Position numbers and translations under genes: made by a program. From an uncultured Methanosarcinales archaeon (lineage in GTDB: Archaea; Nanobdellota; Nanobdellia; Woesearchaeales; CAZYIM01), in the NCBI GenBank assembly GCA_964647565.1, contig CAZYIM010000027.1, forward strand, positions 1 through 40,588: a stretch of DNA of 40,588 bases, given 5' to 3'. Position 1 is the stretch's first letter, and every line of letters begins with the position of its first letter. Below are positions 29,918 to 32,290 of this stretch, piece by piece. The notes beneath the pieces are model-generated. The model was not told where the DNA came from, searched no databases, and saw nothing but the letters and a program-made list of their open reading frames with translations.

Positions 29918-32290
29918 TCAGTCATCTTTGCTGACCTTTTTGATCTCGTGCTTCATGTTTTCAAGGAAGCTAAGATCTTTGTTCAGGAAAGGCAATGCCT
30001 TGAAGACATGTTCCATGGTCTCTTTGAGACTCTTTCCTTCCAAGATGCTGAGGTCTCCGAAGTACTGGGCTGCATTCATGACCAGCTCCTGATCTCCGAG
30101 CCTTTCAAGGGTTGCCACAAGGTTTGGTGACACTGCTTCCATCCTCTTGATGTAGGCTTCTGTCTCCTTCTCAAGCAGTTCCATTTTAGATTCCCTGTTG
30201 TCGTCTTGCTTCTCTTTTTGGAACTCATATGATATCTTGCTTGCTGCAACCTCATTCTCTGCACGACCTACTTTATTCATCTCATCCAGCTTGTTGTCAA
30301 GAGATATCTGGGCAGTGCCTACAGCCTCTTTTTTACCGAGCATCTCAGCTTCTTTTTCCAGGGTTGTCATCCGGATGCCGTAGGTGTCCTGCTTGATCTT
30401 CTCAGTTGTTGTGGAGAGATCATATTCCATTTGAGCCCTTTTCTTGTTCATCTCATTGGTCGCCTTGGACAGGTCATAGTCCATCTCAGCCTTTCTCTTG
30501 TCCATCTCGTTTTGGAATGCATCCTTTTGCGCCTCATCAAGCATCTCAGCTATCTCGTCATCCATTACCTCAACCTTAAGCACCTCAAGGTCATAGACTC
30601 GCATGTTGTTCTCCTTGAAGAACCTGCCTTTCCTGTCTTTACCTTCTTCCTTTGGGCCAAGGATGGTGTCCCGGATCATGTCTGTATCCACTTCCTTGCC
30701 TTCTTTGCCCGAGTAGAAGGTATCCAATGGAAGCCTTTTCACAGATGATCTAACCAAGGAGCTCAGATGATCGCAGAGCAGGCCGACGTAGTTCCTGACA
30801 TCAAACCATTTCTCCTTCTCTTCCTCAAAGGATATCCTGTAGGACAGCTTTACTGCCAGGTTTGCATGGTCCTTGGTCTCTACATCAACAACATCAGATA
30901 CCTTGTTGCCCTCAACCTGAAGGTAGACTGTCTCAAGCAGGTGCTTGTCGTTCTTGGGCGTGCCAGTAGAAAGTGCCAACGTCTCCAGGTCTTCTGAGTA
31001 ATCCATTATATAGTGCTTGGGTCCCTCAACGACTTTCCTGCCTTTCTCAGATGTCACCATCACTGCTGTGTTTGGCGGCACATAGATCGAGACAGCCTTC
31101 TTGTAGTCGTCGTTAGTGGTCTTGTAAAGGTCAGACACTTCTTCATCAAGAGTCCTTGTTATGACTTCCTGCTTGGTTGGGTCTGTTAAGAAGTTCTTAG
31201 AGCCCTTGACTGTCTTTATCTCACCGCTCTTCATGTCCCTTACATAGATGCCTTCGTTCTCAGCAAGTGAGATCGGATCAATCTCTCTTTTCATCTCTAT
31301 GTTCTCGTTTGGGAAGAAAAGGCCGTCCTTGTCCTTGACAAAGAGCTCCTGTCCAACCTTGAAGCTGCCCTTGCCAATGGTCTTTTCCAATGGGTCGCCT
31401 TCTTCAACCTTAAAGTCCTTGGTCACATAGAGGTGCAGGCCTTTTTCAGGCTTCATGGTATGCGCCTTGTAGATGTGCTGGCCGTTGGTCTTCTTCAGTT
31501 TCTCATCTGGCTCTGGGATGACCATCATAGGTCCCTGCACATACTTCTGTTCCCCGTTGGGTGTCAAGAGCACGCAATACTCTCCGTCCATCAGTTTTAC
31601 TGCTTTTCTGACATAGCCGCTATCAGGACCTTGTACTACCTCGAATCCGTTGGGCGGTATGTAGAAGCTGGTCTCACTGCCCCTGACAATGAACTCAGTT
31701 CCTATCTCGATCTTCTTGCCAAGCTTGTCCTCAAGCTTTTCAGCTTCACTCTTCCTCTTGGTCTTTGGCGTTGGCGGTGCTGTATCAGCTCCATCTTCCC
31801 CTAGTGTTGGAGTTGGCTTGGCTGCCTTTGACTCTGTCTTTGCAATACTAGCAGGCGTGTCATATGCCCTTAAGATCAAATACTCATCTTCCTCAAGGGT
31901 GTGACCGTCAATGACGTCAGCAGACTGCCCTGGCCAAAGTGCAGCATAGACAGGCCCTTTCTTGACAACCTTCTTGCCAACCTGTAGATCAACAGGCGTG
32001 TTAGGTCCCCGAGAATAGTTCTTGGCACCTTTGATCGCAGGATTCTTCAACACTATATATTGTGAAGAATCTGCCTGCACAAAATTCTGTATGCCTCCTT
32101 CTTCTTCCCTCACCTCTCGCACCTTTCCAGATACGCTCTCGGTCTTTACCATCCTTTCTGTGTTAGAAAGGCTGACCTTGGTCGGTCCTACATATAGTGA
32201 GACATCTCCCTTGGTCAGATCCTGGACATATGCAAATTCGTTCCAGGCCAATAGAATGTCCCTTTCTCTTCCAGCTCCTGTATTTACCAT
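29918..32290 (-). CDS. Major vault protein (MVP) homolog.
   Basis: 790 aa. N-terminal FAYVQDLTKGDVSLYVGPTKVSLSNTERMV vs human MVP [31 protein letters not shown]. Multiple G-[DE]-x-[FWY]-[LIV]-V-x-G-P-x-x-Y-I-P vault repeats. AENEGIYVRDMKSGEIKTV vs [19 protein letters not shown]. Shoulder-domain block VRNYVGLLCDHLSSLVRSSV vs [20 protein letters not shown]. C-terminal coiled-coil (cap-helix-like) region. Confidence 0.88.
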   Translation of the reverse strand: MVNTGAGRERDILLAWNEFAYVQDLTKGDVSLYVGPTKVSLSNTERMVKTESVSGKVREVREEEGGIQNFVQADSSQYIVLKNPAIKGAKNYSRGPNTPVDLQVGKKVVKKGPVYAALWPGQSADVIDGHTLEEDEYLILRAYDTPASIAKTESKAAKPTPTLGEDGADTAPPTPKTKRKSEAEKLEDKLGKKIEIGTEFIVRGSETSFYIPPNGFEVVQGPDSGYVRKAVKLMDGEYCVLLTPNGEQKYVQGPMMVIPEPDEKLKKTNGQHIYKAHTMKPEKGLHLYVTKDFKVEEGDPLEKTIGKGSFKVGQELFVKDKDGLFFPNENIEMKREIDPISLAENEGIYVRDMKSGEIKTVKGSKNFLTDPTKQEVITRTLDEEVSDLYKTTNDDYKKAVSIYVPPNTAVMVTSEKGRKVVEGPKHYIMDYSEDLETLALSTGTPKNDKHLLETVYLQVEGNKVSDVVDVETKDHANLAVKLSYRISFEEEKEKWFDVRNYVGLLCDHLSSLVRSSVKRLPLDTFYSGKEGKEVDTDMIRDTILGPKEEGKDRKGRFFKENNMRVYDLEVLKVEVMDDEIAEMLDEAQKDAFQNEMDKRKAEMDYDLSKATNEMNKKRAQMEYDLSTTTEKIKQDTYGIRMTTLEKEAEMLGKKEAVGTAQISLDNKLDEMNKVGRAENEVAASKISYEFQKEKQDDNRESKMELLEKETEAYIKRMEAVSPNLVATLERLGDQELVMNAAQYFGDLSILEGKSLKETMEHVFKALPFLNKDLSFLENMKHEIKKVSKDD

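Follow-up and report, generated by a model that had tools for sequence, protein, structure and literature searches.

Known vault proteins and the locus described here

Vaults are the largest ribonucleoprotein particles of eukaryotes, and their function is still unsolved after some 40 years. In every solved structure, their shell protein, the major vault protein (MVP), forms a 78-mer cage through lateral packing of its repeats and shoulders and bundling of its cap helices (PDB 4V60, 9BW5). Outside the eukaryotes, MVP relatives have been published from bacteria, in 2013 and 2019 (PMC3762200; 10.1101/872010), phages (10.1101/2023.11.10.566534), Borgs (10.1101/2024.11.05.622173) and Asgard archaea (PMC12962969), a 2019 preprint having reported no MVP homologue in archaea (10.1101/872010), and the literature that we searched holds no experimentally characterised prokaryotic MVP. 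Here we describe an MVP-family gene on contig CAZYIM010000027.1, of which a stretch of 40,588 nucleotides (40.6 kb), called the window below, was analysed as a whole. Its 790-residue product almost certainly belongs to the MVP family, and the explanation that we favour, and consider likely, is that it represents a genuine, soluble, full-length MVP encoded in the chromosome of an uncultured archaeon, which most likely self-assembles into a vault-like shell.

29918..32290, minus strand: MVP-family gene, an uninterrupted open reading frame (ORF) from ATG to TGA, encoding a soluble protein of 790 residues (89 kDa, isoelectric point 5.2)

Compared with eukaryotic MVP (rat and human; PDB 4V60, 9BW5), the protein shows the same parts in the same order, i.e. 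β-repeats, an SPFH-like shoulder, a long cap helix and a C-terminal tail; it is colinear from repeat R5 to residue 830, keeps the ENEGIYV(R/Q)D box and the LS.S.G.PK loop, and is likewise soluble and acidic. It differs in its sequence (27% identity), in having about eight modelled repeats rather than nine, in a basic insert of 49 residues and in its length of 790 residues as against 861-893. Moreover, most residues of the NAD+/ADP-ribose pocket are not kept, and the window lacks genes for PARP4, TEP1 and vault RNA, so that the partners which make up a complete vault ribonucleoprotein (MVP, PARP4/vPARP, TEP1 and vault RNA) are not found together there.

The prokaryotic systems are closer in some respects. 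The bacterial MVP-like proteins of Myxococcota, Planctomycetota, Acidobacteriota, Bacteroidota and candidate phyla radiation (CPR) bacteria (PMC3762200, 10.1101/872010) are ~700-770 residues long, share 38-45% identity with ours over ~96% of the length and belong with it to a set of 120 homologues with ~65 invariant positions; they too are stand-alone genes with no fixed neighbour. The protein studied here differs from them in falling into a separate clade of archaeal context (bootstrap 92/100), in its archaeal promoter and Shine-Dalgarno signals and in a longer charged insert. Asgard MVP (Köstlbacher et al., PMC12962969) is also archaeal and also has repeats, shoulder and cap helix, with a cup-like multimer predicted; judged by the published description, the Lokiarchaeial representative has five repeats as against about eight in our model, and half of the Asgard proteins are reported to group with eukaryotes, which ours does not in a neighbour-joining tree with human MVP as the sole eukaryote. 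The putative Borg MVP (10.1101/2024.11.05.622173) is associated with archaea (Methanoperedens, order Methanosarcinales) and is predicted to form barrel fragments. Borgs themselves, however, are giant and linear, their genes run in one direction and tandem repeats pervade them; MVP often lies there near histone or exonuclease genes, and TROVE proteins occur too (PMC9605863). In the window and a related contig (L002), by contrast, genes point both ways, the GC content is ~40%, there are hardly any tandem repeats, and MVP lacks histone or exonuclease neighbours. Finally, the short 'MVP repeat + SPFH' proteins found across DPANN, Euryarchaeota, TACK and Asgard archaea (PMC13607799) share the two domain types with our protein, but they have 317-396 residues, a single repeat and variable tails, as opposed to 790 residues, multiple repeats and a cap helix; the 790-residue protein is much closer to the eukaryotic monomer than these are.

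Identity of the 790-residue protein

The first-pass annotation of this DNA had placed a full-length MVP homologue at 29918-32290, and an intact 790-residue reading frame lies on the minus strand at exactly those coordinates. It had also proposed profile searches, in which three MVP families scored above their gathering thresholds: Pfam MVP_shoulder (PF11978) matches residues 462-577 over positions 3-118 of its 118, with 98.3 bits (cutoff 25, E 3.9e-28), Vault_3 matches residues 401-457 with 32.8 bits against 28.8 (E 7.9e-8), and Vault_4 matches residues 340-365 in part, with 25.5 against 22.9 (E 1.5e-5, profile positions 2-27 only). The classic Vault (PF01505) and Band_7 (PF01145) profiles gave no match at E<=1 in the Pfam scan of the protein. 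As the MVP shoulder and repeat profiles match and Band_7 does not, the similarity is not limited to generic SPFH/band-7 proteins, the possibility on which the annotation had said its claim would founder.

Searches at the level of whole chains agree. With phmmer, the matches among all PDB sequences were major vault proteins only (5e-26, query residues 187-705 to MVP 236-770), and a profile of the 120-sequence family alignment matched the solved MVP chains at E 2.6e-60 and covered MVP 216-830, that is, R5 to R9, the shoulder, the whole cap helix and the start of the cap ring. BLASTP gave 27% identity to human MVP 236-770 over 458 residues (E 3e-32). The match to MVP is far beyond chance. The conserved '.G' box noticed in the first reading is real: this DENEGIYV-type box reads AENEGIYVRDMKSGEIKTVKGS and has an aligned counterpart in human MVP. 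Of the block-by-block alignment with metazoan MVP that had been described, the part from R5 to the start of the cap ring stands, but the first ~190 residues are not colinear with R1-R4.

Domain architecture and predicted fold

Structure prediction, also suggested at the outset, gave an MVP-like fold along the whole chain in an AlphaFold2 monomer model built on the 120-sequence alignment (mean predicted local distance difference test score, pLDDT, 81.9). The parts of the predicted chain are as follows.

31856..32269, minus strand: N-terminal β-repeat modules A-C, residues 8-145
31709..31855, minus strand: basic, mostly disordered insert between repeats C and D, residues 146-194, with low pLDDT, two short helices and an isoelectric point of 9.4
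30917..31708, minus strand: β-repeat modules D-H, residues 195-458, colinear with MVP R5-R9 by HMMER and BLASTP to human and rat MVP and by Vault_3 and Vault_4, pLDDT 90-97
31196..31264, minus strand: AENEGIYVRD box, inside modules D-H
30893..30979, minus strand: near-invariant loop LSTGTPK...GNKVSD, across the R9/shoulder junction
30560..30916, minus strand: shoulder, an SPFH-like α/β domain, residues 459-577
30137..30559, minus strand: cap-helix equivalent, a helix of ~140 residues (578-718) with a kink near 625, assigned by DSSP in the model as H578-624 and H628-718
29921..30136, minus strand: C-terminal helical tail, residues 719-790, a possible cap-ring equivalent, pLDDT 43-68

A tandem β-repeat array (nine repeats in rat) N-terminal to the shoulder and a cap helix of ~150 residues directly after the shoulder are marks of the MVP family; the array is present here, and the helices 578-624 and 628-718 of the model correspond to the cap helix. 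An SPFH-fold core domain, a mark of the SPFH/Band-7 membrane scaffolds, is present too. The family profile alignment continues along the cap helix through human MVP 647-802, and further on pairs the 'SPELVATL..LG.Q' stretch of the tail with human MVP 803-830, in a part of the model that has a pLDDT of 43-68 and ends in 11 disordered residues. Modules A-C have no colinear match to R1-R4; we call them vault-type repeats because of the structure model and because residues 42-142 cross-match human R5-R6 (E 1e-4). Module A also resembles module G (hhalign E 1e-4). Sequence-based counting was of little use, the hhalign comparisons among the eight segments being mostly non-significant (best E 1e-4), and it is the model that puts the number at about eight, against nine in rat MVP. 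The length of the insert depends on lineage, with 61 residues over the alignment region here, 55 in the relative P0002 and 18-33 in other relatives.

The second-best structural relatives of the model are HflK/C, prohibitin, flotillin and stomatin, which are closed SPFH cages built on the shoulder-plus-helix principle. This raises the alternative that the product is a membrane scaffold of the SPFH type which organises a membrane patch or a protease, with no free cytoplasmic vault. We regard it as unlikely. SPFH/Band-7 cage proteins, among them also QmcA, are membrane-anchored and have no vault-repeat array, whereas this protein carries ~450 residues of vault repeats, found in no SPFH scaffold, and, since its maximum 19-residue hydropathy (KD19) is 0.57, has no transmembrane or hydrophobic segment. 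In addition, it lacks a Band_7 match, MVP is by far its best structural match over the whole chain, and no NfeD, FtsH or flotillin partner is encoded in the window.

Relatives and phylogeny

A search of 5.8 billion proteins returned at least 424 homologous clusters at 90% identity, nearly all of them proteins of 660-870 residues aligned over ~96% of the query, and 745 clusters at E<=1e-30 were recovered with a profile from 1.84 billion representatives at 50% identity. Scanning one genome per GTDB species gave at least 148 confirmed MVP relatives; their taxonomic make-up, read from the best 80 of the 148, is mostly Myxococcota, with Planctomycetota, Acidobacteriota, Gemmatimonadota and CPR bacteria, and includes three archaeal genomes, i.e. 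two metagenome-assembled genomes (MAGs) labelled 'Methanosarcinales' (52% and 48% identity) and one 'Nanoarchaeota'. IMG/VR adds 48 viral contigs, many of them 100-500 kb long, that encode full-length MVP relatives at 27-38% identity. In the face of such numbers, the initial statement that MVP is essentially unknown in prokaryotes has to be given up. The overall picture is unchanged by our gene, as MVP-like proteins were already known to be scattered over bacteria, archaea, Borgs and phages, and several hundred homologues would be equally suited to the decisive experiment on prokaryotic vault assembly.

The IMG/VR contigs (L093-L140, all classified as viral) span a GC content of 31-70%, and in 4 of the 48 a membrane-anchored flotillin/SPFH-like gene of ~640 residues directly follows the MVP-like gene.

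The phylogeny that had been put forward as a check was built as a neighbour-joining tree rooted on human MVP, the sole eukaryotic sequence, with Asgard and cyanobacterial sequences left out. It places the 790-residue protein in a 13-member clade with bootstrap 92/100 and human MVP on a very long branch, at a corrected distance of 1.9 from our protein. Its nearest relatives, which share 45-57% identity with it as against 27% for human MVP, are prokaryotic without exception. The link to eukaryotic vaults hinted at in the first reading finds no echo here, since the protein lies inside the prokaryotic radiation, shows no special affinity to the eukaryotic protein and has human MVP far off. The deep relationships of MVP are left unsettled by this tree, because it is neighbour-joining only and holds a single eukaryotic sequence.

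Several members of the clade lie in archaeal surroundings. P0003 adjoins genes for L32e, L19e, L34e, SecY and EMC3/DUF106; P0005 and L002 adjoin those for eIF-1A, a TFS-type zinc ribbon, diphthamide synthase and TrmB; P0010 is near Spt5-NGN; and L003 is near Kae1 and an archaeosine TGT. Judged by alignment and tree, the protein is thus a member of a small archaeal subclade of a widespread prokaryotic MVP-like family. The subclade (the 790-residue protein and 12 relatives) is not described in the literature searched and seems to fall outside the Asgard and Borg MVPs published so far, to which our gene adds a well-supported, near-full-length archaeal MVP with about eight modelled repeats as opposed to five in the published Asgard representative. 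A Borg origin was considered for the 'Methanosarcinales' relatives and rejected, as L002 has mixed orientation, 40% GC, no repeat arrays and a gene order in common with the eIF-1A/TFS contig.

At three loci of the archaeal clade (L003 121..5732, L015 4351..10235 and L092 1424..4514), a MazE/AbrB-domain protein of ~300 residues adjoins the MVP gene on the opposite strand; at two of the three it is preceded by an orthologous eukaryotic-type Ser/Thr kinase (31% identity over 510 residues), giving the order kinase, MazE-like, MVP. Neither the MazE/AbrB-domain protein nor the Ser/Thr kinase of these loci has a homologue in the window.

Host and origin of the gene

The nature of the host can be read from the promoters. 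In 18 of the 40 genes of the window, the start codon is preceded by a motif resembling a B recognition element and TATA box (BRE/TATA; e.g. aaaagtTTATAAATA) that begins at -35 to -26, as compared with 4.3% at random positions (binomial p ~1e-14), and a strong Shine-Dalgarno sequence precedes only 4 of the 40. The host therefore appears to be an archaeon with mostly leaderless mRNAs, which agrees with the prokaryote-style, probably archaeal genome and the nearby leaderless genes of the first-pass annotation. Taken together with the genomic contexts of the nearest MVP relatives, this promoter architecture makes the host very probably archaeal; its habitat is probably marine.

MVP is best known from eukaryotes, and the window holds no rRNA or tRNA genes that could anchor its taxonomy, which would suit a eukaryotic contamination or an assembly chimera and hence no prokaryotic MVP at all. 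This explanation, the second case that the annotation had named against itself, is effectively refuted: the window is ~82% coding with intact, intronless genes on both strands, by which eukaryotic contamination is excluded; the archaeal promoter spacing runs throughout; several samples yielded independent assemblies of the MVP gene together with its flanks; and, as noted, the closest relatives are prokaryotic.

The MVP gene differs from most of its neighbours in its own expression signal.

32300..32305, minus strand: Shine-Dalgarno sequence AGGAGG, 9 nucleotides before the ATG

There is no TATA box within 60 nucleotides upstream of the gene. As all four other MVP genes of the archaeal clade that were examined have a strong Shine-Dalgarno sequence, together with distal TATA boxes, a leadered MVP mRNA is, as far as these upstream motifs tell, a trait of the clade, and it is consistent with strong translation. 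The gene also has the highest GC content of the window (0.475) and a GC at third codon positions (GC3) of 0.57, at the top of the native range (z ~2). The GC3 of its neighbours is 0.44-0.51, that of another gene in the window is 0.574, and the clearly deviant islands are those of low GC. A recent horizontal transfer was considered on the grounds of composition and rejected, as both values have a z of only ~2, lie within the native range, and the Shine-Dalgarno-led mRNA belongs to the whole clade.

It could still be imagined that the gene is part of a virus or of a giant extrachromosomal element, such as a jumbo phage, an archaeal virus or a Borg, or was recently acquired from one, and that it would serve this element, e.g. 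in packaging, as a shell or in counter-defence. The large viral contigs in IMG/VR with full-length MVP-like genes, the published phage and Borg MVPs (10.1101/2023.11.10.566534; 10.1101/2024.11.05.622173), the high GC and Shine-Dalgarno-led mRNA that set the gene apart from its neighbours, and the presence of AbiTii and toxin-antitoxin-like genes in the window all fit such an origin. Yet the viral homologues are only 27-38% identical and the protein groups within a cellular archaeal clade; neither MVP nor the nine unannotated ORFs have a PHROG match; Pfam finds no capsid, terminase or integrase; the mixed gene orientation and the single short tandem repeat are not Borg-like; the GC3 is within the native range, the truly deviant islands being low in GC; and the Shine-Dalgarno-led arrangement is common to all clade members examined. 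We consider this origin quite unlikely. Among viral structure models, the best BFVD match was a Harvfovirus protein of 802 residues (E 5e-14) and the rest were SPFH proteins; this, with the lack of a PHROG match, led us to reject a viral origin of the protein.

Proposed assembly into a vault-like shell

It can be hypothesized that the 790-residue proteins would self-assemble side by side, with the repeats packing laterally, the shoulders forming a ring and the cap helices bundling into a closed pole, so that the product would be a soluble, homo-oligomeric, cup- or barrel-shaped shell, i.e. a vault-like nanocompartment or scaffold. A vault-like shell is the most likely outcome because the solved MVPs and the SPFH cage relatives assemble, and so do the published docking and multimer models: for Asgard and Borg MVPs, parts of a cup or barrel come out (PMC12962969; 10.1101/2024.11.05.622173), and bacterial MVP homologues passed lateral-docking tests (PMC3762200). 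That the cage would actually be closed is, by the same analogies, slightly more likely than not. Prokaryotic homologues would offer minimal, partner-free versions for the study of assembly, cargo and ligand binding.

One stretch of the chain deserves attention in this context. The LSTG(T/K)PK...GNKVSD stretch, which is among the most conserved in the prokaryotic MVP family, corresponds by sequence alignment to the 'keyhole loop' of human MVP, which builds an inter-subunit NAD+/ADP-ribose pocket (PMC12280208; 10.64898/2026.05.01.722283). We regard it as a likely inter-subunit or ligand site. NAD binding by the 790-residue protein is not supported by the comparison given below.

Several observations weigh against the interpretation as an archaeal vault-like shell. 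Shell assembly of this protein, most likely as it seems, is argued by analogy. The pLDDT is as low as 43-68 in the C-terminal tail and in the middle of the cap helix, and with one repeat fewer than rat MVP and a disordered insert of 49 residues, the geometry of the shell could differ. When the human pocket residues R504, K506, R507, H509, R511, D521 and F522 (taken from PMC12280208) are mapped, two of the seven are matched, K506 by K446 and H509 by H450, of which the latter is not conserved across the prokaryotic family, and the other five positions hold T, N, L, N and K. The distribution among archaea is patchy, with three archaeal genomes in the best 80 of 148; the family is therefore dispensable and probably moves horizontally. 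The archaeal identity of the host, in turn, is drawn from promoter architecture and from the contexts of relatives, there being no universal marker gene in the window; the best matches of the neighbouring DUF1015 gene are a mixture of Altiarchaeota, DPANN and Desulfuromonadota.

The patchy distribution, the lack of a partner gene, the diverged NAD pocket, the missing repeat and the disordered insert could also point to a decaying or non-assembling relic, where the MVP fold is kept with no cage, e.g. as a monomeric or dimeric adaptor or a nucleotide-binding protein. Against this, the ORF is intact, the ~65 positions invariant across 120 homologues lie in the repeats and the shoulder and none in the cap helix, and the strong Shine-Dalgarno sequence suggests high expression; a relic thus seems very unlikely, and a vault-like shell remains the explanation that we prefer.

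Upstream region of the MVP gene

Two further features lie upstream of the Shine-Dalgarno sequence.

32603..32619, minus strand: candidate BRE/TATA promoter AAAGAAAAT-ATATATAA (TATA box 32603..32610), matching the motif of 18 of the 40 genes
32291..32580, minus strand: structured leader or upstream RNA region of 290 nucleotides, recognised by its minimum free energy (MFE) against shuffles

By its motif and position, the BRE/TATA element at 32603..32619 is a candidate promoter of the MVP gene. The sense strand of the 290-nucleotide region has an MFE of -97.2 as compared with -69.3 +/- 4.7 kcal/mol for shuffled sequences (z ~-6), and the opposite strand a z of -3.7; the structure peaks at 32446..32565 (z -6.4) and includes long perfect hairpins. 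The region has no Rfam match beyond noise and no second copy anywhere, and the MVP leaders of the relatives are not structured and hold no counterpart of it. It may be a regulatory leader or a small RNA, or its structure may be accidental.

An ORF of 37 codons, MQPYKPKTNGITLCDILQADTRSRWLSRRTLLAVEYC, lies at 32463..32576 on the minus strand and starts 27-34 nucleotides downstream of the BRE/TATA box at 32603..32619. Because this spacing is that of the leaderless genes of the window, the ORF may be a leaderless upstream ORF or encode a small protein ahead of the MVP gene.

A bolder idea, which we hold to be improbable, is that the 13-member clade is an old non-Asgard lineage (DPANN or Methanosarcinales-like) of true vaults, closed and lacking PARP4 and TEP1, in which the structured 290-nucleotide RNA or another RNA would be bound or packaged. 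If true, this would amount to a minimal prokaryotic vault ribonucleoprotein and a tractable system for finding out what vaults do.

Neighbouring genes

The neighbours named in the first reading, a ZIP transporter, a double Lrp/AsnC regulator and a nucleotidyltransferase pair of toxin-antitoxin type, all exist in the window, but the significance suggested for them does not follow, as no gene of the window recurs beside MVP elsewhere. In a tblastn search of all ORFs of the window against 87 loci (80 genomic MVP loci and seven loci of nearest relatives), no shared neighbour was found that could be a conserved operon partner or cargo, and when the flanking ORFs were clustered across 80 genomic and 48 viral loci, nothing emerged beyond families rich in paralogues (Ser/Thr kinases, His-kinases) and small local groups. 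With no recurring neighbour, the MVP gene therefore appears to work alone. Pfam scans of the 40 ORFs of the window found no PARP, TROVE/TEP1, NACHT/WD40 or vWA-VIT proteins, and no vault RNA or other Rfam family reached the gathering threshold there. PADLOC does not recognise the MVP homologue, and a role in a defence system was rejected for lack of such a match.

The gene next to MVP was also considered as its partner.

28635..29828, minus strand: orphan gene of 397 residues (ORF397), 89 bp downstream of the MVP gene

Only four homologues of ORF397 were found among 5.8 billion proteins, and one of them comes from a Woesearchaeota MAG. ORF397 matches no Pfam, PADLOC or NCBIfam family and has a GC3 of 0.24 as compared with 0.57 for the MVP gene. 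It was rejected as a partner, as none of the four homologues adjoins an MVP; its AlphaFold2 model (pLDDT 46) is uninterpretable.

NCBIfam matches of the window's proteins are all below cutoffs. Among the remaining genes, an overlapping pair at 27257..28296 on the minus strand encodes a winged helix-turn-helix nucleotidyltransferase (NTP_transf_2/Polbeta; PADLOC candidate PDC-M05A, E 7e-17) and an unannotated partner of 154 residues, and looks like a toxin-antitoxin or defence module. Two islands of low GC, at 793..1701 and 24007..26009 (GC3 0.17-0.18 against an average of 0.38), were probably acquired horizontally; encoded on them are a homologue of the abortive-infection protein AbiTii, a DUF2283 protein and a protein of queuosine salvage. 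The fused double Lrp/AsnC-type protein is weakly similar to the siroheme decarboxylase AhbA/AhbB, with a radical-SAM enzyme encoded nearby (22874..23830 and 18636..19712, plus strand), and the two may be genes of alternative haem biosynthesis and not regulators. The sole tandem repeat in the window, of 36 bp in 2.5 copies (34688..34776), lies inside an unannotated ORF of 506 residues at 34681..36201. At 1912..3495 on the minus strand, a B12-binding radical-SAM protein is nearest to the C-methyltransferases that mature ribosomally synthesised and post-translationally modified peptides (TIGR03975, E 7e-50, below cutoff).

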